Assembly: GCA_017499595.2 (NCBI GenBank)
Contig: CM039001.1
Coordinates: forward strand, 310,001-374,000
Direction of reading: 5' to 3'
Length of the DNA: 64,000 nucleotides
From: Psilocybe cubensis
Lineage: Eukaryota
Made by a program: the position numbers and the translations under genes. Below, one piece after another: positions 11,164 to 57,025 of this stretch; position 1 is the first letter of the stretch, and the number at the start of each line of letters is the position of its first letter. Under the pieces are notes generated by a model. The model saw only the letters and a list, made by a program, of their open reading frames with translations, was not told the DNA's origin and did not search any database.

Positions 11164-11594
11164 AATTGTTGCAGGTCAAATTTCCAATCAGCTCAGCAAA
11201 GAGAAAATAGAAGATTCAGCAAAGATTACGGATTGGATGAAAGCAATTCAACAAAGGGACAAGATGGTTGTAGTTTGAGTAGTTTATCCATTTGCCGAGT
11301 CGAAAAAAGCGTACACAATTACAATATATCACGTGAACATAGGGGGGACAGGAGAAAATAATGCAGCAGTCAAGAAATGTGACGGGATGAAAAAGCAGAT
11401 ATGTGTATGGAATGAAAACGCAGTTATTTTGATGACTGGTGACAATATTTTGGGCAAGTCCACAGAAAATACACGATGTAGTGATGACGAGAATTAAAGA
11501 ATAATGCTACAGGTTGAGATGGAGTAGAAATCAGTGAAAGAACTCATGACTTAGATCATTATGTTCATAAATAATCAGGACGTTTCCGTTGGTT

Positions 11595-13631: not shown

Positions 13632-15546
13632 TGTAAGTTTAGTGAGGGTGTGAGGGTTAATGCGCAAGGGGAGGATCTACGACGCTGTGAGCGTGTCGAT
13701 GGTCGTAACGATATGGATGGGGAGGAAGAACAACCGATAGGCAAACGGGGTATGCAAGCGGGGTATTATGGGGTTGTTGGGGTTTTTTAGAAAGGGCGGG
13801 GGACAGGTTTTTATAGGATTTTCCTCTACGGAAAAGGAAGAACTGGACCACCTAGACCACGCTTGAAAGCAGGCAAACCAAACGCGTCGGGGCTCGGTTT
13901 ACATCATAGAGGTTTGACGGATCGATGGACATCATGGATCTCGGGTACTCAGAGCCCAACGAACCAGCTGCAAGGGCCTAATGGGAAAAGAGTACACGCA
14001 GGTGCCGCGGTTTCCAATTCGTTTTTCTTTCTTCATAAATCGCAATGAACCGCAATCGTCCATGCGTTGCTGCTTAATCCCCTTCCCGATGCACGACCGG
14101 GAGGTAGCCATTTCGGCTCGGATTTACTTGTACCCTGTCCCATCCCACAATACATCTTGGTCCTTATGAGAAGCCAGTTCATATCTTGATGAGAGTGAAT
14201 CCATTTCTGAACTATGCACCTGTATAATCATGACTGAATGTAAAAAAAGGAGTATTGAAGTATGATTGAAGTTCGAGGAAGGCTGGTAAAAGCGGATTGA
14301 ATGCATGCCAAGACTAAGACAACGCATATGTCATCTCTTCCCACGAGTTTAACCTCCGCCAATCGTCTTACGCCGCCCGAGGAGTCACAGCTACTTCTCC
14401 CTACTTCTCCTCGTGGTTAGCAGATTTTGCTGTTATGCAAATACAAGCATGTAAAGAGAATCTCTATAAGCCAATGTTTTATAGCTACACTCCCAGTTCT
14501 GGTGGTGAAGGTTAATGAATGACTGGTAAGCGCAAAACGGGGATAATCTACCTTAATTCCAAATACGAGGGTCCCGCTTCGGAAGCTCGAATGGATTTTG
14601 CGCGCTTTATAATTAGCCCTGAGCCACACGTATCATGTATTGTAAATCAAATTCTACTGGAGGACAAAAATAATGACTGAGGTGTGAAACGACTCAGGAC
14701 GACTCCGTCCTTCGAGAACCGTTGAGACGACGAATAGAATGTTCGACTTCGAATGGCGGAGGAAGCCTAGCGTACCATCGGAGTAAAAAGAGCCAGTCAC
14801 AATGCCGTTATATATAGTCCCATTTTACTACATCGCAATAAAAAATCAGATGGCCAACGAACAACGAGTTTATCGATGATATCGCTATGAATATAACCCC
14901 TTCAAAATTTCGTCAACCGCGCTGAATTTTTTGACGACGCGATAGAGGGCTCCTTACTTGCTTTCGTGTTCCTGATCGCGACTTCCGAGGAACGGTCAAC
15001 TGGAATGAACCGGTTCTCATTAATCTACTTCGCTCCACGAATTTATGCATATGTGCCCCTGCTAGATAAGCCTTGCTAGACCGGTGCCTTGTAAGCAGGT
15101 TGGAGTCATCTGTAACCAAAATTTAATATCAATTAACCATGACGCTCCTAACTCTCTGACACTTCGAAGTTCCAATGCATCGATTCTAAAAAATATTCAT
15201 TTTACATTCCATTCTCTCCTGCCCATCACCCACTGGGAGGGTAACGAGCAAAGCGACAATGCGGACCAACTCTCGCACAAATAAACAAGGATCTACAATA
15301 GCGCGCCCGACCCGCTCCCGCACCTCGGTTGCAACAACGTGGCTCCAGGTCTATAATGTCCGCAAAGTCCGGGTGCGGGTAACAACTCACACCAAACGCC
15401 TAAACGCGTTGCGTCTACACGGGTTCGGAAGAACCGAACCGTATTCCGCATAATGCTCTATACCGCTCCAGAGCGTGTATTACGCGTTCGTTGGGCGGGA
15501 CCCTCCAGGCACTACCAGCTCTACCTCTCCCAGTGTGAATCACAGG

Positions 15547-31048: not shown

Positions 31049-31057
31049 TGAAGCAAA

Positions 31058-34000: not shown

Positions 34001-37000
34001 ATTGATTTTGAGCGGAATGGATACTGCAACCATTACGTTCTACATCACCAATTATGCCACGAAGAAACAACAGCGAACCTCAAACTTGTCCGCTCTGTTG
34101 GCCAATGCCTTTGCCTTCTCGAAAGCAGCGGACCGGGGTGTTACCGATATGCAGCTCGTGAACAAACGACTGATCCAACGTTGTGCCAATTCCTTAACTC
34201 GTTATCGAGAGTTTAGCGGCCCAGAAATAGTTAGCTACATCATGGGATGGGGGGATGTTTACGAATCACATCACTACATACCGATTTTCTGGGATCCGGT
34301 CGCCCGTACGTTGAAAAAGATGTATCCAGAACTTTGCAAACCAAGGTATGACATAGAACCACCAACACATTGACTTTGCGAGCTGACTGTTCCTTGACAG
34401 AACTATTCCACCACAACAGAGTCACGAGGAGAAATCCCCACCCACGACAGTCGAACCAGACGGTACAACCAGCGATGATCGGGAAGGGTCTGGTGGCAGC
34501 ACGCAGGTAGGCAGAATTTTTGTGTTATTTTAAGTAGCATTGTTGACGTTGCCACCAAAATCAGGAGCAGGCCCACGATGTTACATTGGAAATGGTAGAC
34601 GGACGTGCCATGATCAAAGATCAGTTGCGCGACTACGTTTATAGGGGGGAGGAATTGGAGCATATGAGTTTTTTAGATTTCATGCTGTTCACATACGAGG
34701 GAGATCTTGGGAAGAAAGGTGGACCACGTCCTGAACACGAAGGAGATGCGGGCCACGAAGGAGTCGAAAACGGGAGCATCAACGTCGAGTCGACAGGAGG
34801 TCTAGACATGGAGGAACAGGGCGATGGGGTGGCACGAGGTCGTCCTATGAGTCAACGAGTACCATACAAAGAAGGGGCAGGCAAGGCGAGCCGTTGTCGT
34901 ATTATCCGTGGACCGGGGCACGAGAGGCTACCAAGGTTCGTTGGCCGTTGGTTTCCACGAAATGACTGTATGGAAGATCATGAAAAAGAGTTCTACTTTG
35001 CGTCAATGGTTGCATTACTTTCGCCATGGACGGAGCTGCAATCGCTGAAGGGAGAGTGCGCCACCTTTGAAGCACGATTTCAACAACTTTTGGGCGAAGG
35101 CAAAAGGAGAGTACACACCGTAATCCACAACATTCAGTACTACTATGAATGTCTTGATGGAGCGCACGCGCGAAGAGAAATGGAGAAGAATCAAGGGACT
35201 CGAGACCAACCTGTGGAGTGCGAATTGGACTTCGAAAACGAGGAGAAAGAGATGCTAGAAGAGGAGATGCGAGCGGATCCGTTTTTCGACGAATTAACGG
35301 AAGAGGATGTAGAGATAGCGCGGATGGGCAAAATACCCGCCAGGGAGACGCTTTTTGCAGCGGCAGCACTCTATGAAGGAGAACGAGTCGGATTTTTTGA
35401 GGAAGAATGCCCAGACACAGTGTGGAGAGCAGGTTGTCGCGTGGCAAGAGGAGAGGAGGAAATAGACAGGATAGCAGCGTGGGACCAGCAGTTGAAAGAA
35501 ACTGTTAGAGTGACAAACGCAATGGATGCCTCGTGCGACAACATGACGAGCGATGAGAGAGAGCCGAGGGTATTAGGGTCTATAAACCACTTACCACCCC
35601 ATGTCGAAAGACTAATGGACGAGAGCTATGCACACTTTGATATGCAAACCGATTCAGGGCGTCCAGTCCGTGGTATCGAACGACGCCTTCTAGCGTACCT
35701 TAACGAGGAGCAACGTCGTGCCCATGATATTGTTGAAAGGAAGCTGGTGGAACATCTGACAACCCGTAAGTACTCATTCAGGCTAATGAAGTTCATGATG
35801 GAACTCAATGGTAGACAACAGATGGGCACGCCAAGCAGCTTTTGATGCTGATACTTGGGCAAGGGGGTGTTGGGAAGTCAATGTTAATCGGAGCTATTAC
35901 GGAGACATTTGACTTTTACGGCCAACTCAACATCTTAGCAAAGTGCGCCACTACGGGCATTGCGGCCACTGATATCGGGGGGCAAACGCTACATTCATGG
36001 GCCGGTCTTTCAAAAAATACCCCACAAACTGATGAATGGCTGGAGAAACCCTCGGCTGAGATGCTCGCTAAGCGAAAGCGAAATATAGAGGGGAAATCAT
36101 TCTTGATTCTGGACGAGGCTTCAATGGCCGACAAAACAGCCCTTCAACTAACGTCCGCCGTGACGGGTCATGTTCATGGCAAAGCGAGAGGTGCCAACGC
36201 CGATCTACCATTTGGGGGAATGCATGTAATTCTCACCGGAGACTTTCATCAATTTCCTCCGGTGCGTAAACCTCAAGGAGCGTTGTATGTGGAGAGCGAG
36301 AAGGACTCGGTGCGCGCAATGTTAGGCAGAGAAATCTTCAAACAATTTGAGACAGTTGTCATTCTCGACAAACAAATACGGGTGAAAGACGTACAATGGA
36401 TGGAGATTCTGAATCGCCTGAGAGTCGGAGAGTGTGACTACGACGATATCGATGAAATAGAAAAGTTGGTTTTGGAAGACCAGCGCTGTGTTGTACCCGA
36501 TTTTACTCAACCACCCTGGGATGACGCTATCCTAGTAACTCCTCGGCATGTAGTCAGAGAGATGTGGAATCAAGCAGCGATCAAGAAACATTGTCATCGC
36601 AGTGGAAACATCAGATACATTGTTGAAGCGGAGGATACAGTGAAAAGCACCGGAGAGAGGGCATCGATTGCTCAGCGATGCGAAATCGCAGCGATGAAAG
36701 AAGATCTCACAGGAAACCTGACGGATGTCATTGAAATTGCGGTTGGCATGAAAGCCATGATCAAGATAAACATTGCTACAGAAGCTGATATCGCGAACGG
36801 CACCAGGGGTATCATTCACGACATAATATTAGACGAGAGAGAAGGAAGACATCCAGTAATTGAAAATGGTGTGGCGAAACTGAAATATCCTCCGGCCATG
36901 TTGCTTTTCAAACCCAACAAACCAACTCATCTACGTTTTGAAGGCATTGAACCGGGGCTGATACCTTTGACCCCCTCTGAAGCAAAAATATCAGTCAAAC

Positions 37001-37344
37001 TGGAGGGCGAGAAGAAAGCGACGACCATTATGCGGCGACAATATGCCATCACGGCTGGCTACGCGTTCACGGATTACAAGTCACAGGGGCAAACCATTGA
37101 GTATGTCATTATTGACCTAGCACCCCCTCCCAGCGGCAGTTTATCACCATTTGGGGCGTACGTGGCCCTGTCAAGGAGTCGGGGTAGAGATACAATCCGT
37201 CTGCTCAGAAAGTTTGACCACAAACTTTTTCAGCACCATCCATCGGAAGATCTTCGAGCGGATATGAAGAGGCTGGAGGAGTTGAATAAACAGACGAAAG
37301 TACGATGGGAATTCGATCAACAACAGAGAATCGGATTATATTAG
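31058..37344 (+). CDS. Helitron-type Rep/PIF1 helicase (RepHel), 6 exons, apparently intact
   Basis: N-terminal Zn/DUF6570-like region (CASC..CSEC, LRGNVSTY, VRRKRVHAALVWLKANNPLY); HUH Rep motifs IWMTINP, VEAQGRGTLHLHTLIW, YITNYATK; SF1B helicase GQGGVGKS, ILDEASM, GDFHQFPP, TDYKSQGQT, YVALSRSR. Five GT-AG introns restore one frame. True start may be 31139. Confidence 0.95.
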
Positions 37345-39445: not shown

Positions 39446-42027
39446 CTACCGATATCCTCCTTGCTGTTGATACGAATTCAACTGCGTCGTGGACGTCGCG
39501 TACTCATGTCCATGCGCATGTGCCATGGGTGGCTGCCCCGAATATGGATCATAGGCATCATTCCCAAACACCTGGCTCCTACTTCCAAACGAGTTGGTGC
39601 CACGCCCCATATCATCCTTATACGGCGCATGTATGCTGCTCCCCGTCTCATCCGCGTAGCCCGCACCGCCCTTAGCGAGCGGCACAAACACGCTCGACGA
39701 GTCATCGTGCGTCGTCCACCCACTGACGGCGGGCTTGCCACCGACCGCACCCGCACCAGCAGCCATACCCGCGCCGAACTCTTTAGACGGCGGCATACGC
39801 GCTGCGCTGCGCGCCCGCCGCTTCATGCACACCGCGATCAGCGCGCCGAGCACACCCACGACCACAACACCACCGACGATGCACCCGATGATCACCGGCA
39901 AATTGCTCTTCTCCTCCTCACCCGCCGCGTTCGCGTTCGCGTTCGAGTTCGAATTTGTCTTGTCACCTGCGCCGGAGACGCTGTCGAGGCGGACGCTCGC
40001 AGGGAGCACGCTGGCAGGCTGCGTAGGCTGCACGCCGATGTTGCCTGAGCCAACAATGAGATACGTGCCGTTGCTCGGGATGCCGTCGACGACGACGTAG
40101 AGGAATGCAGGGCCGGGCTGGAACAGGTTCGGGTTCGGTGGAGGCTGCGCGACGTGCAGCGTAATCGAGCCGTCTTTGTTGACAGTGAACGAGGTCGCGA
40201 GCTCCATGTGCCTTTGCCCCATGTTCATGGCATGGGTGGTCACCCCGCCGCGCATAATCACAACCTTGGTCTTCTCCGCCGCGGCGTTCGCAGCGCCGGT
40301 GTACGAGCTCGCCGAGAGCGTGATGTCGAAAGCGGGCCCACCGTACGATAGCCTGTTTGGAACGCCAGTTGGTGCGGGGCGCACCTTCGCGTTGAAGTAA
40401 GGCGGGTAGAAGATCTCAGAACGGTACTCGGTCGGGTACATGACGTCCATATTTACATCCGCATTGGGGTTCGAACCTGCGACGAACACCGACGCATCGG
40501 GGAGGAGGATCGCAACGGAGTGGTACATCCTGGGGATCGTCGACGGAGCAAGACCCTTGTTTGACCAGCGGCTTCCCCGCGGGGCGTTGGGGTTGTAAAT
40601 CGCAGGTGTGAAGACGGGGTCGGATGCCAGAGATGGTCCAAACGGCATCAGCGGGCCAGGCGTATCGTTTGTCTTGTCGGCGTAACCAGCGGTGCCGTTG
40701 CGTCCACCGTTGATCATGAGAAGTGTTCCATCAGGCAGATTGATGAACTGGCCCATCGTCCGCCGGTCAATCATATCGTCGTCCTGTTCGTATGCAACGG
40801 GCTTTGTCTTATCTGCGGGTTCGGGTGTCAAGCGCTGGCAGTCGGCCGAGGCGGGGAATAGCCAGGGGTCGACGTTGGGGCCGCCGTAGTCTCCCCAGTT
40901 ATCATCTGGCATGTCGGAACCACCGCAGAAGAGTAGCGTTGGTGTGTAGTTGTTCTCCGGGGTGAGGGGGAGCATGGCGACACCACCAGAGGCGGGGTAG
41001 ACACGAATGACGCCCTTGGGCATATCGGGTAGAGGATATTCTTTATTGAGACTGTGGTCCCACAACACTATTAATAGCAGTGGGAATGAGATGAAATATG
41101 TAACCGAAAGGAAAATGTGTACACGCACTTGTAGAATGGTTGGCTTGCACAAGCATCAAGCCAGAGGGCATCAGGTAGGTGTGCGCATAAGAGTTCAGAC
41201 CGGAAGTCTTGACCAAGAAGTCGACGACCTCCGCATCCTTAGCCTTTGCGGGGAAATATTCGTAGCTGTTCTCCGCAAGCCCAGCCTGAGTGATAGCGTC
41301 GACATTGGGTCTGTCCGGTTTCCAGCGATTTATGTATCCACCACTGACAAATCCGCCAAGGATGACCACGGTACCATCGCCGAGCGGCTCAGCTGCAGCG
41401 TACCAGCGATTTCTCTTCATAGAGAGGTGCTCAATCTCGTCGTACCATGTGCACTTGGGGGACAAGAAGTTCTCGTTCGAGCTACAGGGGTTGAGGATAC
41501 GAATCGCCTTCCTGCCGTCGAAATCTTGGTAGATGCTGTCCCAATGTCCCGTTCCGTCTGGGTTCTTCTGAGAACCGACTTTGCCGCCGATTGTGATTCC
41601 GTCGTTTCCGCCGAAGGTGACGAAGGAGCCGTTGGGAAGATGCATCCCTGAGGAACAGAAAGAATTGCTTTTGACATCCATAACATCGACATTGTGTGTC
41701 GCAATATCCCTATGACACAAAAGATCAGATGATTCCCAATGACGAGCTGTGAAGCGGCGCACCAACGAGAACCCCAGGCAGGGTGTCCTGCAACCTGAGC
41801 GGCGTTTCCTTCTGCTTTGTCCAAAATGTATACGCCCTCATTATCACCAAGGAACATCTGGCGCGGGAGTCAGAAGACGAAAGAGGTGTGATATAATCGT
41901 AACTACGTACCAGCAAAGCGCTAACTTTCGTATGACCTGCTTCCACGAACGAGCCACCAGTGGCCGCCTGGACAGAGTTTACGAACGCTCCTAGGCATAG
42001 CGCCACAACGTGGAGTCGTGACAACAT
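39446..42027 (-). CDS. Copper radical oxidase (AA5_1, glyoxal oxidase family) with C-terminal TM anchor
   Basis: Signal peptide; LDKAEGN, SNSFCSSG (Cys), RWY, RMYHS (Tyr-His), THAMNMGQR (His); TM IIGCIVGGVVVVGVLGALIAV followed by KRR. Confidence 0.95.
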
Positions 42028-44459
42028 TTGGGGAACCCAATGGGCGGGGGCAAAGGGAGGGGGGCAAGTAGTAGGAGGAAAAGGGAAAAGATTATGATGG
42101 AAACAAGGGCACTGCCCTGAGGGGGGTTAATAGCGACAAGTAGAATCTTGGCTGGGCCTCGAGCTGGAGGACAAGTGGCGATCACCAAGGGCATCACCGC
42201 ATTCTTCCTCAAAAAGTCCCAAAAGGACCACTCTTGGTGAGCATTTCGTGGCATTACGGTCCACAACCGATGCCGTTATCAGCTAGAAAATGGGAAAATA
42301 TGCCCACTTGGCAAGGTCCGGTGTGTATGGACCGACGAACAAATCAAGGGAGCTCCGTCGTAGCTTTACGTTCATTATAGATTCTAGTCTACTTGAAGCC
42401 TTGCATTTAGGATGGGGACAAAGTAGAGGCCGAGTTTGCTGCCATGAAGACTTGAAGTCATAGGCTACCATAAGAAACGTGGCTAAGAAAACTGAGTGAG
42501 ATTTTCAGGAGGAGAGGCGTTTCCTTGGCGTGATTTATTGGCGTGATGCCGTTACGTCAATAATCCTACGAAAATAAACCAACTTCCATTTTCGCACGCA
42601 AACTGAACGCTTTTCCACATCCTGTCTGCAACTTTGCGTGAAGATCAAGACAAACATGGTATGAAGCCTCGAGCACTGAACAGCGTCTGCGTATGGGCGT
42701 TAACACCGTTGCACCCGACCGTACAGTACAGCCACACAGCAAGCATTCGTGTTGCTGCCCATGAGGCGCAATACGGTGTACGCTAGCCATCCCAAATGGT
42801 AAGATGGTAGGTTTACATATACAACGCCACCAACTCCCACAGCATCTCGGAAATATCTCTTTTTTCCAGCAAGATAAATCATCACCGCAATACACGAAAA
42901 TATAAACCGCGATTGTTAATGTATGGGCGTCGGGTCTGAATATTGACTTCAAATCAGCTAACTAAGGCGTTTCAAACTGGATCTGCAAGATTATGTTCAT
43001 TAAATTTGACAGCCCTAGGAAGATACTAATAAAGAAAAATCAAGGTATTTCGTGCACTTGGGCATTCAATACATTTCCTATATGTCAACTGTGAAGTTTG
43101 GCTGACTATTGATCGACCTCAGGATCTAAGCGCCCATGATTTGTGACACGAGCTCACTATAATTAGTTCAACTGGTAAGAAGAGTGGAGTTCAGGATAGT
43201 TTATCTTAGTTTAGATATCTGATCCAAAGAGGCGCGCGTCAATCTCCCGTGGAATCTTGTCTCCGTCTCGTGTAGTAAGAACTGGCCTCTTCGGTTTGTA
43301 TCCGTCAGCCCATTTTGACGGACATTGATCGCCCCACAGAGGTTTTCCTTTGAAGAGTTAGAAAACAATAAAGTAGCCAGTGGATTCAAAATCGGTCAGG
43401 CTCAACGGAAAAATTGACACAATCCAACTATACACACGCCAAGCCTGTTGCCTTCGCTATATCTGACACGCTCTTTCAGCTCTACGCTGTTCTACGCTAG
43501 GCCGGATTTGGGCTAGAGCCGTCGTTACTTCGAAAAGTGTGGTCTCGGTCAAACTCAATTACTTTATTAGCTAGAAATTTGGGTGCATAGAAATTCAGGG
43601 CAAGTGTTGAATGACTTGCCTCAGGAGTGCAATGATGCATGATATGTAGCAGCAGGAATGTGGAGAGAGCGACGAAGAATAAGCTGAGAACTGAATTCAG
43701 GGATGGGGTACCAATAATGATTGATTGACGCGCTGTGATCCATAGCGGGCGTCCAGACAACGCCGACTCCCAAATATGAGCAGATTCAAGCCGCAACTGT
43801 TGATGCCACTGGATGGCACATTCTTTACTGATAGCCCTGATTGTAAGTTCATCATGTGATGATTCCCATAGTCCACATGACCTTCTCCTAAACAGGACGC
43901 GGTGGGAACGCGAAGGGTTGGTTCACGGGAAAGCATCAAAATATATCCTATTGCGTTGTATAAATGCATTATACATATATCATGTATGTTGAAGAAAATT
44001 TTCTAAACATTCAAGCTTGTACTAAATGAAGGGGAATGCAATTGCTCTCTCTCATTAAGGTCCACGCGGTCGCGTGACTCTTGTTCAGGGGAGGCTTAAC
44101 GGCTCGGGAAGCTGTGGAATGAATTTTAATCTACTTTCGTCATTTCGACTCCTGCTACTGCCGCACTGAAGTATTTTCAGACGTGTACATTGTCAATCTA
44201 TTCTCTTGATATGTTCTCAGGCTTTGGATTCTGTCTCAGGAACCTTCAACATTCTGTGGATAAGCTTACAACCAGCGACAGATGTCACTACACCGTCGTG
44301 CAACACTGCCTACTAGCTTGACGTCGTGGTTCCGTAGTTCAGCGAGCGGTGTCGATATGCTGTATCACTGTTGATATTCATATTTTACACTTTTCAGCAC
44401 TCTATCCTCCATCTCCCTCTCTCTTTTCCCTCAATCTTCTTTCGCTTACTGGCACAAGA

Positions 44460-45504
44460 ATGAAATCCGGTATCAAAGGTGAGAAACGCCGTATCACATG
44501 TACGCCTTGATTCAACGATGCTTACAATTGTCGTCAGTGATGGTTCTTGGAGACTCTCGTGTAGGGAAGGTATGCATTTCACGTAATGCCCTTGACCTGC
44601 TATCATTTATGTTTCATTGCGTGCATGAATAGACATCCCTCCTCGTCTATGTTACAGAGAATCAATTTCGAGTAGGCTAAATCTCAGCATTTTAAAGATG
44701 GATCATAGCCTCGGAGCTAACACATACACCTGATTTGAGATTCATTTTGACCCCACCGGTATGTACCGTTACTTGACCTTTGTCTTTGTATCCAAATTCT
44801 AGCGATTAATTTTAGATGTTCAGTAGAGGAATTCTATGGAATGAAATACAAAGCAGGTGACGGGAACGAGTATCTGCTAGCAATGTACGACACAGGGGGC
44901 GAATACGAGCTCGATCACTTCCGCTCTCTATATTATCCGAGGACGGACGTCTTTTTGCTGTGTTTTTCTGTTCTGGATCCTGCCAGTTTTGACAATATAC
45001 GGACGCTGGTATGGATATATCCACGTTCAATCTTCTTAATGTGGTTTTAAGCAAGGTTGTCATCGAACAGTGGGCCCCTGAGGTCGCCGATTATCTTCCT
45101 TCTGCTGCAACGCTGGTGGTGGGCACGAAGGTTGATTTGCGGCATGACGCGACGGTGATTGACGCGCTGCGAGATAGGTGTGTGGTGAAAGTCCGAAATG
45201 AAATTGCACCTTTCAACAAATTCCATTATTTAACCGTGCTTGCCAGGCGTTCAGCGCCAATTCAATATGAGCAGGGAGTTTCGATGTGTAAGGATGTAGG
45301 AGCAGCGGGCTATGTTGAGTGTTCTTCCCTCACTGGGTATGGAATCAACGTTGTCTTCGACGAGGTGGTGAGAATCGGGAGTGAGTAATATTTCCCTCAA
45401 AATAACTTGTCTGGTTCAACAAAGTCGTACTGATTAAACTCAATTTAGGAGAACTCCCTGTCAAACAACCGCGTCGACCACCCCGAGCATGCATCATTGC
45501 ATAA
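44460..45504 (+). CDS. Atypical Rho/Rac-family small GTPase 1
   Basis: Spliced: MKSGIKVMVLGDSRVGKTSLL...FDPTVEE...YDTGGEYELDHFRSLYYP...GTKVDLR...ECSS...RACIIA* (CAAX). Confidence 0.9.
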
Positions 45505-45544
45505 TAAAAAATAAGTGTTTATTAACCATCAACAGAAAAAGCAA

Positions 45545-47101
45545 TTATGTATGTGGAGTGAAGGCAAGCTGTTGGCCTTTCGCTGCTATCTTCGCTAGAT
45601 AAATGTTCGTGCGGCCTAGAAGAACCAGCCGCCCGTCCCCGGCAAACGCCATGTTGGATACGGTTCCACCCGTGAAAAACTTGCCTAGCAGAATGCCGTC
45701 GGGAGACCAAACGTTTACGCCATCTCCGCATGCAGCGTAGACGTTTCCGGCGGAATCCAGCTCTATGCCATCTGGAATCCCGGTGTCTGCGTATGCGAAT
45801 ATCCGTCTGTTGGTGAACACCTGAGATCTCGGGTCCACATCAAATTGGAATCTATGCAAAAATGAGAGAGATTGGCAAGGCTCGTAAAGCGTGATGCTAG
45901 ATGCCAGCAAGAAAGACGAACATTGTAGCGGTTCTGGTCTGATCGTTTATGTCGGGACCATTGATGGCCCCTGTATCTGTGCTATTGCGATTTTCATTGA
46001 ATGCTGGTGGAGAATCGCAACGAAGGACGATGGACGCACACATAGGCTCTTGTTCCGTCGTGGCTGAAAGCTATACCGTTGCATTGTTGGAAGTCAGTGG
46101 CAACCACTCGCGCTGTGCCCGTCGTCGTATCGAATCGGTATACCTGGTTCGGAATCATAGCTGGCGGGCGTAGTTGAAATAAGGCGCCGAAACTATGAAG
46201 TAACTCGTTATCAGTGGTATATTTTAACTTGCTTGATGAGGGCATAAATTTGAAATGGGACTTACGAGACATCAGTGAAGAAAATAGCCTTTGAGATGGG
46301 GTGTATTTTGATGTCATCCAGCGAGTTGAACTGCCGTCCATAGAAATTGTCCAGAAGGACAGTTGCGTTGTATGGCTCCTTCGAGTGTACGAGAACTACG
46401 GATGGCGGAAGTGGTCCTATTCCATCCGTTACAAATAATAGTGACGATCCAATTGGACCTGTCCCGCCATTAATTTGTTGAAGTGAAAATGGCACATTTA
46501 CCTAGTACTCCGTGTAACCGTCAGCTGTATTGGAGGATTTTTTTGGCAATTTGTGGGGTAAGAATGAGCGCACCTGGGTAGCTGGAACGTTGACTGCAGT
46601 CGCGTTTAAAGGACCTTGTAGGGTCTTTAATGCGGTTTCCACTGTACCCATGCTGATCTTATTTACGACATTCTGGTTCTCAAAAAAGCCTACGAAAAAT
46701 AGTTCGTCCGTGTCTTGAACATAGATGGGAGCTTCGTGAGTTATTGACGGAATGGTAGTATTTGACGATATCGATTGGAAGATTGGATTGGGTCCAAGGA
46801 CGTCAAAGAATGCATGATCGAACACCTGTATAAATGGAGGACTGGATTGCGTTGGGTTGAAGAACTGGGTGAAGGACGAGTTTCGAAAATTGCTTGATTG
46901 GGATCCTAGTACGGTATAATTCTTGGAGTCTATGACCTGCAATTCTTTTGTCAATTGGAGGGTTAACTAGAAAATTGGGACGGTACCTACCACTATTTGT
47001 GCAGATGTACTCGATGCAGAGGGCATGCTGATATGGGCAGAAATGCGCAAAACATAGATCGTTAAACCGAAGAATAGGTTTGGTATAGATTTTTGCATCA
47101 T
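45545..47101 (-). CDS. Secreted SMP-30/gluconolactonase (lactonohydrolase-like)
   Basis: HEAPIY, NGGT, LDNFYGRQFNSLDD, IFFTD, CNGIAFS, GIPDGIELDSAGNVY; signal-like N-terminus. Confidence 0.92.
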
Positions 47102-48779
47102 GGAAGGTCAAAATACTGCACTGAACAGGTCTGTAGAGATATGCTACGCAGATTTTATTTAAACCCTGCTTCTGAGGCTCATTTGGGGATATGGGGCCCA
47201 TGAAGAGATAGTATTTCTGTCGTTGCTTATAATTTGTGTCTCCAGCAAAAACCTGAAACTTCTCCAATTTCCCATCCAAGATTGAAATAGTCTATGCACA
47301 TCCAATAAATCCACACCTGGGCGTTTGTTTGCGATGCGAGTCGCGTCACTCCTGTCAGTCTGTGGTCCGGAATAATGCAAACGCTATTATCTTTTGCTAC
47401 AGCCTGAGATACCTGTTGAATTGTCATTATTATTTGTGAAAAAATGGTCATGAAAGCACTATATTTAAATCGTCAAATGGAGCAAGTTTAGCAACAATGA
47501 TATCTAGGTATGAAGATACACAGAGTCCCGAATAGGTTCGGCCAGGGCGGTAATGATCCAAGTTTGTACTACTGACAAAAATTCTTGAGAGAATAGCATG
47601 GTGAATGGCGTTAACGGTTGTAGAAATAGATCATTGGATTCACCAATCCCAATTTCTATACTTCCACAATGCAACCTGGGGCGCATCTGGCATTCACTAA
47701 CCTACTTAAATAATATCAAGGAGCGCTCAATTGCGGCGCTTTGGCGCTCCATGATGTTTCGACACTATTTCTGGGGGTACCAAGTTTGGTGCTAGATAAA
47801 TATCATACTACTATTTCTACGTGGATACGAATGACTATGCGCAACGCGTGTATTAGCACCAGTACTGCGTCAACATCAAGAACAAGTATCAAAGATAGGG
47901 GTTAAAACAGCTGATCGCGTGATCGCGACTTTTTGTTCAGGGCCGGTAAGCCAGGAAGAGGAGCAATTTACGCACCACGAAGTGCGTTAAACTTTCAACT
48001 GACAACATGTCGCCCATGGTCTAGGGAGTTTCTTGGCTCTCTGTGGTCAGTACCTTGATTTCTCCCTTAAAATACACCTCCGTTCCTCCATTATTCGGCC
48101 ACAACGCAAATAGTTCTCACCGGCAACCCCGCGAAGTGACATGTCGGGCGTCAAGCTCACTTTCGTTCCGACAAGTAGATTGTAAATGAATCTAGTCAAT
48201 GTTGTCTCTTTTCCCAGGTGAATATACATTCTACTACTAAGTCCGCGTTCACTTACAATGATATCCTGTCGATGATCGCCTTTATTTATTAACACAGCCC
48301 CAATTCGAACATTAACAGGGCTGAACAGCCTTTTCTACTTATTTTTGGGCGCCGCTTCGCGTGTACAGGGACTACTTTTGACGAGAATGTGGGGAAGCAA
48401 CTCGAATAGCACGTAAGTTGCATATATGATCTCTTTTAAATAATATTTTGAACTCATACCGTATACAAACTGGTTCAGACGATCCGCCTCCCAGACACAA
48501 TGAGGAGTTCGGAAGTGGTAAACTAATGCTATCATGAACTGCTTGATAATCAACAAGTACACATTCATTTCTGTATAGAGGGATATCGCCACGTTTTCGG
48601 AATGCAGGCGTCATATGCGAAAGCAGAAGGCCACAGTGTTGTGTTCGGCATAATGCCGTGGCAGCTGTGCTGTGTTCTTACTTCATTCTCTCCGGGCAGC
48701 AAAACACTTTTCACTTTGTCTATTATCCTGCCCTCATTACCGTTCCTTTTTTATTTCCTCTATTGCCTATTCGTTGACC

Positions 48780-49784
48780 ATGTTCTCTGCAATTAAATGT
48801 AAGGAATGGTCATTGTATCAATGATATTAATAATCTCATGATCAACGTCAGTGGTGGTACTTGGAGATGGCGCTGTGGGCAAGGTACGTATATCTGTGAA
48901 ATACTTTATGTCGTTATACAACTAATCGCACACTGCAGACATCCCTTCTCATTACCTACACGACCAATACATTTCCAGTGCGCCTGCCCTGTTTGTCATA
49001 AATCAAGTTCATGTCTAATTCGGTTTCGCTATTTAGACTGATTATGTCCCCACCGGTACGTTGCTTCTGAAGGTAGTCTCCAGGTCGCTCAACCTATCCT
49101 GTCTCTCAGTGTTCGACTGTTATACAGAGCGGCATATAGTTGATAATACCGACGAATTCCTTATCGGCCTGTTTGACACGGGGGGCGGCGAAGATTACGA
49201 CCGCCTTCGGCCATTGTCGTACCCATCGACGGACGTATTCCTGCTTTGCTTTTCTGTGGTTGAGCCAATCAGCTTCGAAAACATCCGGTCAAAGGTGTGT
49301 CGACCTATTTTATTGGCGCAACGCTGAATATTATGCTCACATCTTGCGATCATCTCGCAGTGGGCGCCTGAGGTGGCCCACCATCTTCCTTCTGCCGCTG
49401 TCCTGGTCGTTGGAACCAAGATCGATTTGCGGAATGACGCAACAATTGTTGATATGTTGCATGACAAGTAAGCGTGCAGTCATCAAGACTCCGACCTCTG
49501 TTCGTTGACGTTGACTGTCCAATTTAGACGCACAGCGCCCATCCAACGTCAACAAGGAGTGGCTTTGTGCAAGGACATAGGGGCAGGGGGCTATATCGAG
49601 TGTTCTTCGCGCACTGGATCCGGAATTAGAGCTGTATTTGACGAAGCAGTCAAACTTGTAGGTGAGGATTTTCCCATCTATCTTGTGATGCAATATACCA
49701 GGACGCTGATGACAGGCGTTGAAAACAGTGAATTCAGCATCTAGAAGAGTACCGGAATCTTCCAGGAGGTGTGTGATTGCCTAG
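48780..49784 (+). CDS. Atypical Rho/Rac-family small GTPase 2
   Basis: Spliced: [39 protein letters not shown]...[18 protein letters not shown]...GTKIDLR...ECSS...RRCVIA*. Confidence 0.92.
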
Positions 49785-50061
49785 AGTCAGAAAACCCCTG
49801 CAAGACTCGGATAATGAGGGTTGGGTGTGACCTGTGCGGGGCTGTTCGTCATATAGGTACTGCTTTTATTTATAACCCAATCAATCAATCGAGAAATGTC
49901 CAACAAAAGCAAAGCATTGGGGACATGACAATGTGTCATCTTTACTCATGGTATCGTTACATATGCGCGAGGGGATTGCCTTGATGTTCTTCCTTCTTGG
50001 CCCTCTTGGAGGTTTGAGCAGTGAGTTTACGTTTCCCACCTAGCTATCGTGTGTTTCAGAC

Positions 50062-51038
50062 ATGCGTAATCCCCCCATTCTTAAATGTGAGCGTTGTATC
50101 ACGTCAGTTCGACCTCAACTTACAGTTGATGGTTAGTGGTTCTCGTCGGGGATTCTACAGTTGGAAAGGTGCATATAATATATCTAGTAATATTGGGCTA
50201 TCTAACCTGACGCTTGATAGACATCCATGCTCATTGTCTACACATCAAATAAGTTTCCCGTACGTTAGACCAGGTATTCTGACAGGTTTTCGCAACCGAA
50301 TGATATTTTACAAAGGACAATTATCTTCCAACAGGTGCGTATGGACGCCATTGCACACCATATGTATTGAAATCATTTGCATTTAGTATTTGATGGTTAC
50401 TGTGCCAGACGCATAATCGATGGCAATGAATACAGCGTATCATTGTTTGATACTGCAGGCGGGGATGAATACGACCGCCTCCGCCCACTCGCTTACCCAC
50501 AGACTGACATTTTTGTAATGTGTTTCTCTGTTGTCGATCGGACGAGCTATGAAAATATCAGTTTGAAGGTACACAGTCCCTTTCTATTTTTCTTTCCCTT
50601 TGCATTCTTATTTTCATCTTGCCGTTTATACTTTTAGTGGGCCCCTGAGATTGAACATCACAATCCATCTGTACCCATTCTTCTCGTTGGAACAAAGGTC
50701 GATTTACGAAATGATTCTATGCGAGACAGGTACGTAGGTCAAATGATTAATGATTATAATAGCGAATTCATAATCTTTCTGGTACAACAGACATAATTCC
50801 ATACTGGAACACCATCATGGGATGACGATGTGTAAGGACATCGGCGCTGCATACTATGTTGAATGCTCTTCATACACCGGATGCGGTGTCAAAAGTGTCT
50901 TTGAAGAGGCCATGAGGCTAGCAGGTGCGTTCGAAGTATACTTTGATTTGATAAATCTCTGTCAACACATTACTATTTACAGCAAATCCTCCTCCTAAAC
51001 TCGTACCAGCTAGACGTAGAAAGTGTGTTGTTACATAA
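50062..51038 (+). CDS. Atypical Rho/Rac-family small GTPase 3
   Basis: Spliced: [23 protein letters not shown]...DNYLPTVFD...[18 protein letters not shown]...GTKVDLR...ECSS...RRRKCVVT*. Confidence 0.92.
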
Positions 51039-51477
51039 TTTAATCTTTCTTTAGTCAAGAAGTAGCATCTATGAATCATAATTTACTTAGTATGCGAATT
51101 ATGTGCTCGTTCATATTTTGAAAAGAGACTAAGTATTCTGAGCTGAGTCCCAACCACAACGTGACTGTTTCTATGTTGAATTCATTCGCACGCTTCGAGC
51201 TTCACGAACAAAATCTTACATTGATCCAATCCGAAAAACATATCCTCTCCTGCGCCTAGAGCTGATGCAATATCTTGCCACACATACCGATATGCTTTCA
51301 ACGTCAAAAGACATCACCAAATTACGACACACACACGACTTGGACATGCATAGCCTTGACGTGACTCGATTCTTGAGGCCCCTCCCTAGCTAACCTCCCA
51401 CCATTCACACCAGAGAAAGCAAGCTGAGAATTATTGGCATTTTCTTGTAAAGAGGTGCATCTGGCAAGGCAGACATT

Positions 51478-52550
51478 ATGATGCACAGTATCAAATGTGA
51501 GTTCATTGATCGTCAATTTCATACCTCCTGTGTTTCAATGGGCTCAACAGCGATTTTTTGAAGGTGTAATCGTCGGAGATGACACAGTCGGAAAGGTTGT
51601 CGCCTACATAGTACTCAGAAGTATTCAGTGTTTCTGATAGACAACATGGTACACAGACATGTATAATCACAAGACGTGCAGAACATGGGTTTCCCGCCGT
51701 GAGTGGCAGAGTCACCAGTCAGATTCCTCAAGCTTCCTCCTCATCCTGCTTTCTTATGAATCTCAGACCGAATATGTGCCATCTAGTGCGTTGAATCTGA
51801 TAATTTTCCCACTTTTAACACAAATCTGACATAATATTTGCTCAGTATATGGTGGATATGCAGAGAACCGCAGAGTAGACGGGAAAACATACAGTTTCGG
51901 ATTTTGGGATACCTCGGGGGACCCGAGGTATGATGATCTTCGGCCCTTGTCTTACCCAGACACGGATGTATTCTTGATATGCTTTTCAATTGTCAATCCA
52001 AGAAGTTATGAACATGTAAGGACAAAAGTGGGTCCATTTTTTGTTTTCCATTTTGTCGTGTATACCTAATGCTAAAATTTCTGCGTTCTATTAGTGGAGT
52101 CCGGAAATCACTTTTCACAATTCGCGTACCCCAGTCATGCTGATCGGTACGAAGAGCGACTTGCGGAACAATCTTGTCATAGTCGATCATTTGCGTAATC
52201 AGTAAGTCACACAATTCAGTCTGTGTTGGATTCCTAACGCTACCTTCATTCGTCATATTACTTACACCCTAGTCAATTTTGTTTCTTCAGGAATACAGCT
52301 CCTATACAAACGCATCAAGGAATAGCAATGTGTAGGGAAATTGGGGCAGCTGCTTATCATGAGTGCTCTGCTTTTACCGGCGAAGGCATCAACGAGGTCA
52401 TTGATGAGGCATTTCGAATTGCATGTACGCTGCAATTTCCACTAATGCGAATATTTTTGAAAGTGCTGACCTTCATTAATCATCGTCGGCTCAGTAAGCT
52501 CTCCTGGTGGAAAGAAAAGAACGAGGAGTGGCTCTTGTATTATTGTCTAG
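51478..52550 (+). CDS. Atypical Rho/Rac-family small GTPase 4
   Basis: Spliced: MMHSIKCVIVGDDTVGKTCII...TEYVPSIYG...WDTSGDPRYDDLRPLSYP...GTKSDLR...ECSA...SGSCIIV*. Confidence 0.9.
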
Positions 52551-53103
52551 CGAAATCAGCATTTCCATCAGCATCTGTCCAGAATTCACCCAGGGCTGGC
52601 ACAGCCTTCCAGTGCTTTTCGTTGCAGTTACTTTTCAAGTTGTTTTGATAGAACGGGTTGTCCAACTATCATGAATTTATGCCCTATGGCCCGGCCCTTG
52701 AACACGCTGGGTGTACATTTTATCTTCTGCCGAAATGCCGACACAACCAGATTCTCGCGCCGAGTCTACCCGCCAAATCTAAATAATCAAATTCTTGTTA
52801 ATATTTTTGCAACATGCTCTACCCGCAGTATTTCTGAATTACCCATAATTCTTCTCTTAACTATCGAGTTAGAAAAGAGATGTTGGTGATGTTCAGTCAC
52901 GGGATCGCGTAGCGGCCGTAGCCTCTCAGACGAATCAAGCGGAGTGTGGCGGACCTCCAATATATCTCAAGTGTGCTTGATCCAAGTTGAACCTTGATGA
53001 TCGTGCCAATGATCAGATAGTAAGTCTATGTCATATGCTTGCTGCATGCTTTCGGATACTTGGTTGTTCTTCTGGTACCATTGAAATCGATTCGAATAGT
53101 GCA

Positions 53104-55339
53104 ATGCTACCTCAAGACGGCCTGGGTGATGTCAGAATCCCCCCTCTTTCCCCTGTTCCTTCCGGGCTGGCAAAACCGGACGATCGTCTATGTGACACCT
53201 GTAGCCAACTCGGCTTGACTGTTGAAAGTTTTACTTACATCCCTGGGAATGAGGACGCTTATAAAGAACAGATTTACTTAGGGCTCGTCAAGGACATTAA
53301 AGAAAAAATGCGCTGCCCTCTTTGCCGTCTCATTCTCGCGAGCATTGGATCCGAGCTTCCGTGCACGGAGGATGGACAACCATTATCTATATCATTCCGC
53401 TGGGAGACAGATCCTAGATCTTCCTCATGTGCCATGGCCCCTTATGCCTGGAAGCCAGGAGGAAGATATGCAAATCCTAAACGGTTGAATGCCTTCCCCA
53501 GGATTACAGTTCTTGCCAATGACACCACCAATCCGTGTTTAATAAATTACGTCCGTCCAATTGAAGACACGATCAATTTTAACATGGTGAGCAACTGGCT
53601 CTACATGTGCGAGGACTGGCACGGGGATGTTTGCGAGAAGTCAAAATATCTTGATGGAGTGGTGGACAACCCCACGGCTTTGATACCTACCTTCCGTCTT
53701 ATCGATGTCGTCGAAAATTGCATTTTGTTTGCTCCAGCAAACGTCACGTACGTAGCACTCAGTTATGTCTGGGGAAAAATAGATCCAACAAAGATATTGA
53801 GATTGACCAAAGGAACTATCAACGACCTCGCAGTCCCTGGCGCTCTCTTACAACAGCAGAACTACGACATCACCCCGATAACAATACGAGATGCTATTCA
53901 GGTTACACGCGAAATTGGTATACGCTACCTATGGGTTGACAGCTTGTGTATTGTACAGGATGACGTCGGACCCGGTGGAAGCAAGATGGATGCAATATCA
54001 AAAATGGATCTCATTTATGGGGCCGCATATTTGACAATTATCGCAGCCACAGGAGGTGACGCCAATGCCGGTCTTCCTGGGGTTAGACCTGGCACTCGAA
54101 AGATCCCCCAACTTATAGAGGAAATCTATCCAGGACTTCGGCTGGCAAATCGGCCGAGTGACCTGGCTCATATACCAAACATCCATCGAACTAGGGCGTG
54201 GACGTAAGCACCATCCGTCAAATGCACGTATGCTTTTGCACTGAGCTTGTTCTAGATACCAAGAGCTGAGGTTCGCTAAAAGAAGCCTCAGCTTTATCGG
54301 AGGGCAGGCGGTTTTCCAATGCTGCAGCTACAATTGGCGCGAGGATGTCGTTTTTGAAGACCGAAGTTGGTATCTCACCTCCAACCGGAGCCGTACCGTC
54401 GAACTCCCGAACAAGATATTCGAACTCGAAAGCATGATCTACGGATACTCTGGGCTTTCGTTGACCAATGAGGAAGATATCTACGATGCATTTGCTGGTC
54501 TTGCCCGTTTCTTCAGAACAAAGCTGGGTTCAAATCTTTGTCACGGTATTCCGGACACAGATTTTGACTGGTTCTTGCTGTGGACGGCCCAGGATCCTCC
54601 TAAACGTAGACCACATGCGCCTAGTTGGTCGTGGTCGGGATGGCAGGGTGAGATGCGACCGATGAGCTGGTGGAGGAATCGACCTAGCACCGAAGAAATT
54701 CGCGAAATACAAAAGGAGCGGACGTGGATTGTATGGTACGAGCGAAAGGCGCATCACCTGGAAGAGTGCCAACGCGTCAGTAATCCTGAGAATAGCAGTC
54801 AGTCTTCCTCTAGGTTGCCACCCAATCCAGAAACACGGTTACAATCTCGTTTTCCATTTGATTGCAGCCAGACGCTCCCAACACCGCGGAAGCTAGTCAA
54901 TGCGCCGAAATATATTCAAAGTGGACACTCCGAAGCCGGCTCAGGCTTTCTCCAGTTCTGGACCGTATCTGTAACATTCCGGTTGGCTGAACCAGAAAGC
55001 AGGGAGAACCCCAGCTTTGGTCCCCGAAATACTCACTCTCGGATTGGTATTTTTGGTCGAAACGGTCAAGAGATTAGTATCGTCTATGTGAATCCTGACT
55101 GGCGACACAGGAATCTTCAGCCGCAGAGAACCCACGAATTTATTTTGCTGAGCGAAGGGGTAGACCATGATTTGAGGCTGGATGCCTCTGAGAAAGACTT
55201 GAAATATATGGTGATGCTAATAGATTGGCAAGAGGATGGGCAATGGGCGGAACGTGTTGCTGTGACATCGATGGAGAAGACAGCATTAGACCAGGCGTTT
55301 GGGCAAGGGCCGATATGGAAAGAGATTATTTTAGGATAA
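53104..55339 (+). CDS. HET-domain (heterokaryon incompatibility, TIR-like) protein
   Basis: CxxC..CPLC, W...C...H..C, FRLIDV, YVALSYVWG, TIRDAI, RYLWVDSLCIVQDD, MDLIYGAAYLTIIAA, RAWT|YQE (intron 54204-54255), PSWSWSGW. Start may be 53035. Confidence 0.93.
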
Positions 55340-55681
55340 AATTAAAAAATGGTGCCATGGTTGAAATGTTGGAGGTTCGTTGGTAGTTCAGCCTAGAAAT
55401 TGCTTGGCCTTGATTAAATTCGGACGGTTCTGAGTGGGATAGACGAAACACCGTGAGTTGATGGAGAACTTTTGCAAGAAAGAAGAGATTCAAAGTCAGA
55501 CACATCAATTCAACATCAGCCAATTTTAGCCACGCCTTTGAACATTCGGTGATAATTAGTTGGCGCTGTCAAGAAAGTGATATTTGATGCCTGCCCTGCA
55601 CCGCCGCTATCTTCCGTCTTAAATTAAGTAACGACATGCGCAAGCTAGCCGCTCTGCGTCGACGTTTGCACAGTCACCACC

Positions 55682-57025
55682 ATGGCTCCTCTCCCCCTCA
55701 TTAACCCTCCCTTAGAAAACTCGAGCTTCAACCTAGACATATTCAGTATCGCTGGTTTCTTTGGTGGAGATGAAGTTCTCGAATCAATGTCGACGATACA
55801 TCTGACCAATGGCCGAAGGTGGAGGGGATGGTACAATTCTCCAGGCGCTTACACCGTTGCAAAATCAATCGGCCGCATTGCAAACTCCCAGTTCTGGAGG
55901 GGTATTTTTCCCGGATCGTGGAAGGATCCAGCTTCGAGTTTCGGCTTGGATGGAAAGAAAGGGCCTCAATATGTAGCCGTTCTTTCTGGAACGAAGATGA
56001 CTTCGGGGTATATGGGCCATTTGCTCGCACAGTATGTGAAGCAACTCCCAGACGACGTCAATCTGGTTGAAGAATCACGAAAGACCAGAAGTACAGCAGT
56101 AACCATCATCGATATCAAGAATGTCGAACAATTAGACCACCTATCGAGCCGAAGTTCAACATTGCATCTCCTACTATCATACTTCACCATGATTAGCAGC
56201 GTCGCGTGTGCTATATTCTCCCTTATTCTGTTTAACGACCGGTTCTGTTTCTCTGCCATTCTTTTGGGCACAATAATTGGAGGGTTGTCAACTTGGGTAG
56301 TCGGAACAGGCAAGCTGACTCTGCAGACCGTATTCAAACCCGCTCCTGGATCTCCTCCAGGTGACGGCGTCCTAATTGGCGAAGAATTTACTGTTCTGCG
56401 CGGCACAGAAGGTCACGTCAACGCAATTACCAAAGGCAAATTCAACCTAGAACTAAGAGGCGGGCCAAATTATCATATAGTCGGAATATGCTCCCTGCTC
56501 TACTTGCTCCAATTCATTGCACAACTTTTCCTCATCCCGCAAGGTCATCTCGCTGGGCAAATCATGTTTCTTTGCTCGTTTGCTATCTCTTGGATCTACA
56601 ATGGTGCAATCGCTTCCATCGACAAGGAGGCAATGCAAACAAACTTGCTTCGTCAATCCGTGACGATGGACATAAAAAAATATACTTTACCCAACCGGAC
56701 GAGGGCGGTAGTCTTCACATGCCTTTCCCTGCGACGCTCGTTGGAAGAAATAGAGGAGAATCCAGTTTACTCCGATTTTAATCCAGAGACCCTTCTTGTA
56801 ACAATGCTCCCAAACGATACAAGAGTTTGGCGAAAATGGAGACAAGTGGTCAAAGACATTCTTCTTCGAAAACAACCACCGGAGTATTTTGACGACGCCT
56901 TAGACGAAGCTGACGTAGCCGATCTCCGAGAGGATCAGCGTAACCTCTTACAAACACTTCTAAAAGACGCAAAGATTGCACATAAAATGTACAACAATCC
57001 TGACGGTAAGTGTACCTCCAATTGA
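55682..57025 (+). CDS. Uncharacterised multi-pass membrane protein (447 aa ORF)
   Basis: Long uninterrupted ORF; IAGFFGGDE, RRWRGWYNSPG; about four hydrophobic helices in two hairpins. Confidence 0.8.
   Translation: MAPLPLINPPLENSSFNLDIFSIAGFFGGDEVLESMSTIHLTNGRRWRGWYNSPGAYTVAKSIGRIANSQFWRGIFPGSWKDPASSFGLDGKKGPQYVAVLSGTKMTSGYMGHLLAQYVKQLPDDVNLVEESRKTRSTAVTIIDIKNVEQLDHLSSRSSTLHLLLSYFTMISSVACAIFSLILFNDRFCFSAILLGTIIGGLSTWVVGTGKLTLQTVFKPAPGSPPGDGVLIGEEFTVLRGTEGHVNAITKGKFNLELRGGPNYHIVGICSLLYLLQFIAQLFLIPQGHLAGQIMFLCSFAISWIYNGAIASIDKEAMQTNLLRQSVTMDIKKYTLPNRTRAVVFTCLSLRRSLEEIEENPVYSDFNPETLLVTMLPNDTRVWRKWRQVVKDILLRKQPPEYFDDALDEADVADLREDQRNLLQTLLKDAKIAHKMYNNPDGKCTSN

Follow-up and report, generated by a model that had tools for sequence, protein, structure and literature searches.

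Rac1-derived Rho paralogues without the catalytic glutamine in Psilocybe cubensis

Rho proteins deficient in GTP hydrolysis, namely Rnd and RhoH, are textbook cases in animals. Two residues, Gly12 and Gln61, are critical for hydrolysis, both intrinsic and assisted by GTPase-activating proteins (GAPs); Rnd1-3 and RhoH, which are substituted at both positions and keep nucleotide binding and a CAAX box, are regarded as GTPase-deficient and GTP-bound (available part of PMC8305018). Here we describe four Rac-like genes, g1 to g4, in a stretch of 64,000 nucleotides (nt) of the Psilocybe cubensis genome (GenBank assembly GCA_017499595.2, contig CM039001.1, positions 310,001 to 374,000), hereafter the window, whose own numbering is used throughout. 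An initial sequence-only reading had presented them as four tandem Rho/Rac-like GTPases, all without Gln61 and three also substituted at Gly12. Its premise that such substitutions impair GTP hydrolysis, as in RhoH and Rnd, agrees with the available part of PMC8305018.

In fungi, Rho proteins have been described mostly by number. Of the fungi compared in one review, Laccaria bicolor had the largest number of Rho genes, with a lineage-specific expansion in which motifs were retained, gained or lost (available part of PMC8146680); it is also credited with '19 homologs of Rho1' (PMC13101504). Ten Rho genes are reported for Volvariella, and one Rac and one Cdc42 per basidiomycete (PMC5037802). In the literature searched, we came across neither a fungal counterpart of Rnd or RhoH nor a fungal Rac clade lacking Gln61; what we found were counts of Rho expansion (Laccaria, Volvariella, Lentinula), and the primary Laccaria work may describe similar motif losses. 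To judge from these searches, g1 to g4 would be atypical Rho proteins with a substituted catalytic site, i.e., of a known kind, here in fungi, where it is apparently undescribed.

Gene models and active-site residues

Spliced models were built by hand from the DNA at 44000-53000, using three-frame translation and GT..AG introns. Four intact Rac-like genes resulted, all on the + strand, each with 8 exons and 7 introns and no internal stop codons. Their introns measure 50-89 nt, begin with GT and end with AG in 28 of 28 cases, and lie at matching codons and share their phases (1,0,0,1,0,2,1) in all four hand-built models, as had been proposed from the letters. The model of g1 is based on its sequence and on exon lengths equal to those of g2 in all eight exons (19/32/39/19/185/107/134/56 nt). 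Exon open reading frames (ORFs) of all four genes match the Pfam family Ras (PF00071). The genes, with protein lengths in amino acids (aa), and an unrelated gene that lies among them are the following.

44460-45504, + strand: g1, Rac-like GTPase of 196 aa; exons 44460-44478, 44538-44569, 44633-44671, 44740-44758, 44824-45008, 45071-45177, 45247-45380 and 45449-45504; CAAX box CIIA
45548-47100 (end approximate), - strand: SMP-30/gluconolactonase/LRE-like gene, unrelated, between g1 and g2; Pfam SGL, E-value 2.3e-08, on the ORF 45548-45946(-)
48780-49784, + strand: g2, Rac-like GTPase of 196 aa; exons 48780-48798, 48852-48883, 48939-48977, 49037-49055, 49110-49294, 49361-49467, 49528-49661 and 49729-49784; CAAX box CVIA
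50062-51038, + strand: g3, Rac-like GTPase of 192 aa; exons 50062-50086, 50137-50168, 50221-50259, 50316-50334, 50387-50568, 50638-50729, 50791-50924 and 50983-51038; CAAX box CVVT
51478-52550, + strand: g4, Rac-like GTPase of 196 aa; exons 51478-51496, 51564-51595, 51657-51698, 51767-51785, 51846-52027, 52095-52201, 52291-52424 and 52495-52550; CAAX box CIIV

The description of four tandem genes holds for g2, g3 and g4, which follow one another head to tail with spacers of 277 nt (g2-g3) and 439 nt (g3-g4). It does not hold for g1, which is separated from g2 by 3275 nt and cut off by the minus-strand SMP-30/gluconolactonase-like gene; the array is thus one plus three. No further Rho-like gene was found within the window by tblastn with canonical Rac1 and a paralogue as queries. 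The public annotation of g2 is an NCBI protein of 134 aa, P0001, named 'Rho GTPase protein rac1 [Psilocybe cubensis]', which is matched at 100% identity by exon 5 of g2 and is the same as residues 1-134 of our model; it is truncated, and neither the complete gene nor the unusual active site can be recognised from it.

The G1, G3, G4, G5 and CAAX motifs of the spliced models match those of the sequence-only reading letter for letter. In the order g1, g2, g3, g4, G1 reads GDSRVGKT, GDGAVGKT, GDSTVGKT and GDDTVGKT; G3 reads DTGGE, DTGGG, DTAGG and DTSGD; G4 reads TKVD, TKID, TKVD and TKSD; and G5 reads ECSS in the first three and ECSA in g4. The CAAX boxes are preceded by Arg and Lys, i.e., the tails are polybasic. 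A Rho insert aligns to Rac1 residues about 121-135 in g1, g2 and g4 and is 5 residues shorter in g3. All four genes thus have the G1-G5 motifs, the Rho insert and the polybasic CAAX tail of the Rho family.

Alignment with Rac1 bears out the loss of Gln61 in all four proteins and the substitution of Gly12 in three. Position 61 is E/G/G/D in g1/g2/g3/g4 and position 12 is S/G/S/D; a third position, Ala59 in Rac1, reads G/G/A/S and is likewise changed in three of the four. The codons concerned are these.

44555-44557, + strand: g1 position 12, Ser (TCT)
44901-44903, + strand: g1 position 61, Glu (GAA)
49187-49189, + strand: g2 position 61, Gly (GGC); position 12 is the canonical Gly
50154-50156, + strand: g3 position 12, Ser (TCT)
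50461-50463, + strand: g3 position 61, Gly (GGG)
51581-51583, + strand: g4 position 12, Asp (GAC)
51920-51922, + strand: g4 position 61, Asp (GAC), codon read by hand

None of the four combines Gly12 with Gln61, as canonical Rac1 does. Given the residues at these two positions, we regard g1 to g4 as Rac1-derived paralogues and not as Rac1 itself. Outside the catalytic positions, the copies differ in their partner-binding surfaces. The Rac effector face (F37, D38 and Y40) and most of switch II are retained in g2 and g3, and F37 and D38 are altered in g1 and g4. Among the four, g1 is the most divergent in switch I and switch II, and g4 has Ser in place of Thr35 and is the only one with Trp56.

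Descent from Rac1

To place the four proteins, a careful maximum-likelihood tree was calculated from 46 rows and 195 columns, chosen from 467 proteins; support is given as bootstrap/SH-aLRT (Shimodaira-Hasegawa-like approximate likelihood ratio test). The rows comprise g1 to g4, two further proteins, P0124 and P0003, named fungal and animal Rac1 and Cdc42 proteins, Mycena paralogues and some proteins without Gln61. Two RhoA-type rows served as outgroup, and rows for Rho2-4, Rnd and RhoH were left out. In this tree, g1 to g4, P0124 and P0003 form one clade of six rows (99/98), nested inside a clade of 15 basidiomycete Rac1 rows (96/97). The distinct Rho subfamily that had been anticipated, and for which a phylogeny had been proposed as a check, is thus seen as a clade within basidiomycete Rac1. 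Within the six, g4 branches first, and g2 and P0124 are the innermost pair. The terminal branch of g2 (0.047) is the shortest in the clade; the others are long (0.78-1.02).

Other evidence also points to Rac. The G4 motif of g1 to g4 is of the Rac type, TKxD, and not of the Cdc42 type, TQxD. The closest solved structures of P0001 are Rac3, Rac2 and Rac1 (E-value about 3e-53), which rank above Cdc42. By the tree, the G4 motif and the structure matches, g1 to g4 descend from Rac1, and not from Cdc42 or a RhoA-type Rho. In a protein atlas, the neighbours are only generic Rho/Rac proteins, and the nearest model is Rac1, with a template-modelling (TM) score of 0.90.

P0124 is a P. cubensis protein of 212 aa with a mis-modelled N-terminus, 76% identical to g2 and encoded outside the window. 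Because strains differ by only about 1.5-2% at the locus, as against its 76% identity to g2, we take it to be another paralogue, the fifth, instead of an allele; the species thus has at least five members of the clade.

All six members of the clade lack Gln61: four have Gly (g2, g3, P0124 and P0003), g1 has Glu and g4 has Asp. Because the residue is missing in six of six, the simplest account is that Gln61 was lost once, on the stem of the clade, before the duplications. By the codons seen, the steps from Gly to Glu (GGA to GAA) and from Gly to Asp (GGC to GAC) are single-base changes. After the loss of Gln61 in the ancestor, later copies would have changed Gly12 (to S, S and D) and Ala59 (to G, G and S).

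With basidiomycete Rac1 proteins, e.g., P0405 of Fistulina and P0054 of Mycena, the four share the fold and family, TKxD, the Rho insert and the polybasic CAAX tail. They differ in the absence of Gln61 (four of four), in the changes at Gly12 and Ala59 (three of four each), and in that the Psilocybe clade has WAPE for WYPE/WFPE, ECSS, and TGxG for TQKG. Fistulina Rac1 is 48-56% identical to g1 to g4. The CAAX type of the four appears ordinary, because this canonical Rac1 ends in CIIA, as g1 does.

Searches for relatives give weak evidence that the clade is taxonomically narrow. In a profile search, which scored no more than the 8000 candidates with the most words in common, none but P0124 and P0001 was closer than canonical Rac1. 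A search of representative proteins with P0001 returned 803 proteins at E-values up to 1e-30, headed by multi-domain fusions and by canonical Rac and Cdc42 proteins; variants without Gln61 were sporadic among these matches. In a metagenome scan, DNA encoding DTGGGEDYD, a stretch found in the Mycena paralogues described below, had no match, and P0124 gave one weak locus, L001, with 49% identity over 41 residues.

The Mycena paralogues P0046, P0055, P0069, P0074 and P0397 offer a parallel. They are Rho paralogues of the Agaricales, present in several copies per genome, with the stretch DTGGGEDYD; A59G and Q61G are shared with the Psilocybe proteins, and Ser12 occurs in two aligned members. In contrast to the Psilocybe clade, they fall within Cdc42 (100/99), as a separate clade (99/98), and have the Cdc42-type TQxD. 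This placement suggests, as a lead only, that Gln61 was lost independently in Mycena and in Psilocybe. A joint clade of the Mycena and Psilocybe proteins without Gln61, a group that was named after the tree had been seen, was not rejected by an approximately unbiased (AU) test (lnL difference 22.9, p 0.082). For some of the Mycena DTGGGEDYD paralogues, the gene models fuse two domains, which is suggestive of genes in tandem.

Maintenance, transcription and strain variation

The remark that the genes look maintained is borne out by the comparison of the copies with one another. Pairwise Nei-Gojobori counts among g1 to g4 give saturated proportions of synonymous differences (pS 0.72-0.79) against proportions of non-synonymous differences (pN) of 0.26-0.39. 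The ratio of the corresponding rates, dN/dS, is 0.14 and 0.16 for the only two gene pairs in which dS could be computed. Corresponding introns are 38-42% identical, compared with 36-42% for shuffled introns. The duplications are, by these measures, old, because synonymous sites are saturated and introns are as unlike as shuffled ones, and the four appear as maintained genes and not as decaying copies. The four frames, the 28 splice sites and all nucleotide-binding residues are intact, a survival difficult to square with neutral decay.

Transcripts were found for three of the four. Four of five sequencing runs, none of which is recorded as RNA, were compared with the locus; X5 placed no contig there, and two runs, X2 and X3, are DNA and cover the whole stretch. 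Contigs of a third run, X1, skip predicted introns at the exact borders of the models, with GT..AG ends. Because such joints are present in X1 and absent from X2 and X3, X1 is RNA-derived. For g2, an X1 contig has the joints of introns 1, 2, 5, 6 and 7, and the lengths of its pieces fit the loss of introns 3 and 4. For g3, X1 contigs join across introns 1, 2 and 5, with introns 3 and 4 appearing as a single 124-nt skip that encloses the exon 4 letters; another contig lacks intron 7, and intron 6 lies outside the joints listed. For g4, the joints are those of introns 6 and 7, i.e., of the 3' part only. No X1 contig was seen over g1 or over the 5' exons of g4 in this one run, from which, as from the blank of X5, silence is not implied. 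The splicing predicted from sequence, for which RNA had been proposed as a check, thus stands for g2 and g3 and, in g4, for the 3' part; for g1 the same run offers no contig.

One X1 contig is continuous over 49727-50086, taking in the last exon of g2, the 277-nt spacer and exon 1 of g3. It reflects either overlapping untranslated regions or a read-through transcript of the two paralogues.

Differences between strains are unevenly distributed over the genes. None of the 12 insertions and deletions listed falls in a GTPase exon. Among the single-nucleotide polymorphisms (SNPs) listed, at least 13 lie in exons of g1 to g4. Those of g2 and g4, one each, are both synonymous; all three in g1 are non-synonymous, and g3 has eight, 6 non-synonymous and 2 synonymous. 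This is a hint that g1 and g3 could be under relaxed constraint or evolving faster.

Could the four be young or decaying duplicates, their motif changes being neutral damage? The amino-acid-changing differences in g1 and g3 lean in this direction, as does the precedent of Laccaria bicolor, in which a lineage-specific Rho expansion includes motif loss and pseudogenes (available part of PMC8146680, summarising Rajashekar et al. 2009). Against it stand saturated synonymous sites and randomised introns, together with frames that are nevertheless open, 28 of 28 splice sites, pN well below pS, nucleotide-binding residues intact in all four and spliced transcripts for g2, g3 and g4. We consider neutral damage very improbable. 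The features by which a decaying pseudogene would be recognised, i.e., a broken frame, broken splice sites or a dN/dS near 1, are absent from g1 to g4, and g2, g3 and g4 have spliced RNA. The pseudogene reading was rejected on the open frames, the intact splice sites, the pN far below a saturated pS and the spliced RNA of g2, g3 and g4.

Within exon 5 of g3, at least 7 strain differences, of which 5 change an amino acid, fall inside 100 nt (50416-50515), in the beta2-beta3 hairpin before switch II. A tract of gene conversion, or else diversifying change, could explain the cluster.

Nucleotide state, partners and neighbouring genes

Our preferred reading, which we hold with somewhat better than even confidence, is that g1 to g4 encode prenylated, nucleotide-binding Rho proteins derived from Rac1, with slow and GAP-insensitive hydrolysis, analogous to Rnd and RhoH. 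Binding of guanine nucleotide and Mg2+ would be kept through GxxxxGKT, Thr/Ser35, DxxG, TKxD and ECS[SA], and the polybasic CAAX tail would give prenyl-dependent anchoring in membranes. With the catalytic residues substituted, intrinsic hydrolysis of GTP is expected to be slow and catalysis by the arginine finger of RhoGAPs to fail, so that the proteins would rest mainly GTP-bound at membranes. Control would then be exerted by abundance, location or modification instead of a cycle of guanine-nucleotide exchange factors (GEFs) together with GAPs, as for animal Rnd and RhoH. The copies need not act alike: g2 and g3 may engage Rac/Cdc42 effectors, because F37, D38 and Y40 are retained, and g1 and g4, with their diverged effector face, probably have other partners.

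The substitutions of the Rnd/RhoH type are found at position 61 in four of the four proteins and at position 12 in three. The Rnd proteins also differ at position 59. In contrast to Rnd, the Psilocybe proteins lack N- and C-terminal extensions. Their clade lies inside fungal Rac1, which points to a separate origin and makes them analogues, not orthologues, of Rnd and RhoH, a distinction drawn from the nesting alone in a tree without Rnd or RhoH rows. Furthermore, the GTPase deficiency of Rnd and RhoH has been measured, whereas that of g1 to g4 is one we infer.

Evidence from Ras can be read in two ways. The rates of HRAS Q61G and Q61E are about one-eighth of wild type (Der et al. 1986, as reported in the available part of PMC6813200), and a raised intrinsic GTPase activity is cited for p21 Q61E (available part of PMC2987813). 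Alternatively to the preferred reading, g1 to g4 might be switches that still cycle, either because Glu61 in g1 and Asp61 in g4 act as a base, or because a dedicated GAP supplies the catalytic residue, the loss of Gln61 re-wiring the choice of GAP. There is a natural precedent in Rap, which lacks Gln61 and for which RapGAP supplies the catalytic residue in trans. The conserved nucleotide-binding apparatus and the conservation of most of switch II are what would be expected if switch conformations matter, the p21 Q61E activity fits, and Gly12 of g2 leaves space for an arginine finger. However, Gly61 in g2, g3, P0124 and P0003 offers no side chain and, in HRAS, is the slow Q61G variant; three of the four copies have Ser or Asp at position 12, a type of substitution by which GAP catalysis is blocked in Ras; and no candidate for a special GAP was found within the window. 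On balance, we consider continued cycling, the main alternative, unlikely.

The retained surfaces of g2 and g3 also bear on a role as decoys or buffers, i.e., membrane-bound Rac look-alikes that tie up Rac/Cdc42 GEFs, the guanine-nucleotide dissociation inhibitor (GDI) or effectors, and thereby damp or shape Rac1 signalling. Descent from Rac1 and the retention in g2 and g3 of F37, D38 and Y40, which contact effectors and GEFs, and of most of switch II would suit such a role, and copies with differing switch I could suit different partners. Yet F37 and D38 are lost in g1 and g4. As an account in its own right it seems to us distinctly unlikely; it is compatible with GTP-locked proteins, of which it may be one form.

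Several points weigh against GTP-locked proteins with slow hydrolysis. Gly12 is retained in g2, the slowest-evolving copy. The carboxylates of Glu61 in g1 and Asp61 in g4 could still orient or activate water, and the two reports on Q61E, each seen in its available part (PMC2987813 against PMC6813200), make Glu61 in g1 not clearly disabling, as judged from Ras. Gene g1 is without RNA support in the X1 contigs, and the listed strain differences in g1 (3 of 3) and g3 (6 of 8) mainly change amino acids. Outside P. cubensis, a single clade member, P0003, was found, in searches swamped by canonical Rac and Cdc42.

If g1 to g4 are indeed locked on, they would be a natural, independent replicate of the Rnd/RhoH solution, and would help to explain the continued expansion of Rho genes in agaric genomes. 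A wider proposal, which we hold as rather doubtful, is that a Rnd-like class of prenylated Rho proteins, permanently loaded with GTP, arose separately in mushrooms, perhaps on several occasions (in Psilocybe out of Rac1 and in Mycena out of Cdc42, A59G/Q61G being common to both), regulated by transcription and not by GAPs and serving lineage-specific morphogenesis or signalling. The expansion in Laccaria bicolor is a likeness in that it is an agaric, lineage-specific Rho expansion, known here by description only, with no Laccaria protein among the hit lists.

Elsewhere in the window, the following genes and elements were noticed.

52981-54204, + strand: ORF with a heterokaryon incompatibility (HET) domain (Pfam E-value 9.8e-25), about 430 nt past the g4 stop codon and on the same strand
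54245-55336 and 55649-57022: two long ORFs after the HET ORF, possibly its continuation; no Pfam match
31052-37341, + strand: transposon of the Helitron type, some 7 kb upstream of g1, with a DUF6570 ORF (31052-32404), Helitron_like_N (32505-34370, E-value 1.2e-33) and a PIF1-like helicase (35815-37341, E-value 1.4e-20)
1934-2642 and 11534-13638, - strand: two sugar-transporter genes (major facilitator superfamily, Sugar_tr) in the first quarter of the window
39449-41837, - strand: glyoxal oxidase/galactose oxidase-like gene, with Glyoxal_oxid_N and GO-like_E_set

The bin with the highest GC content in the window (0.559, 40001-42000) is the one in which the glyoxal oxidase-like gene lies.

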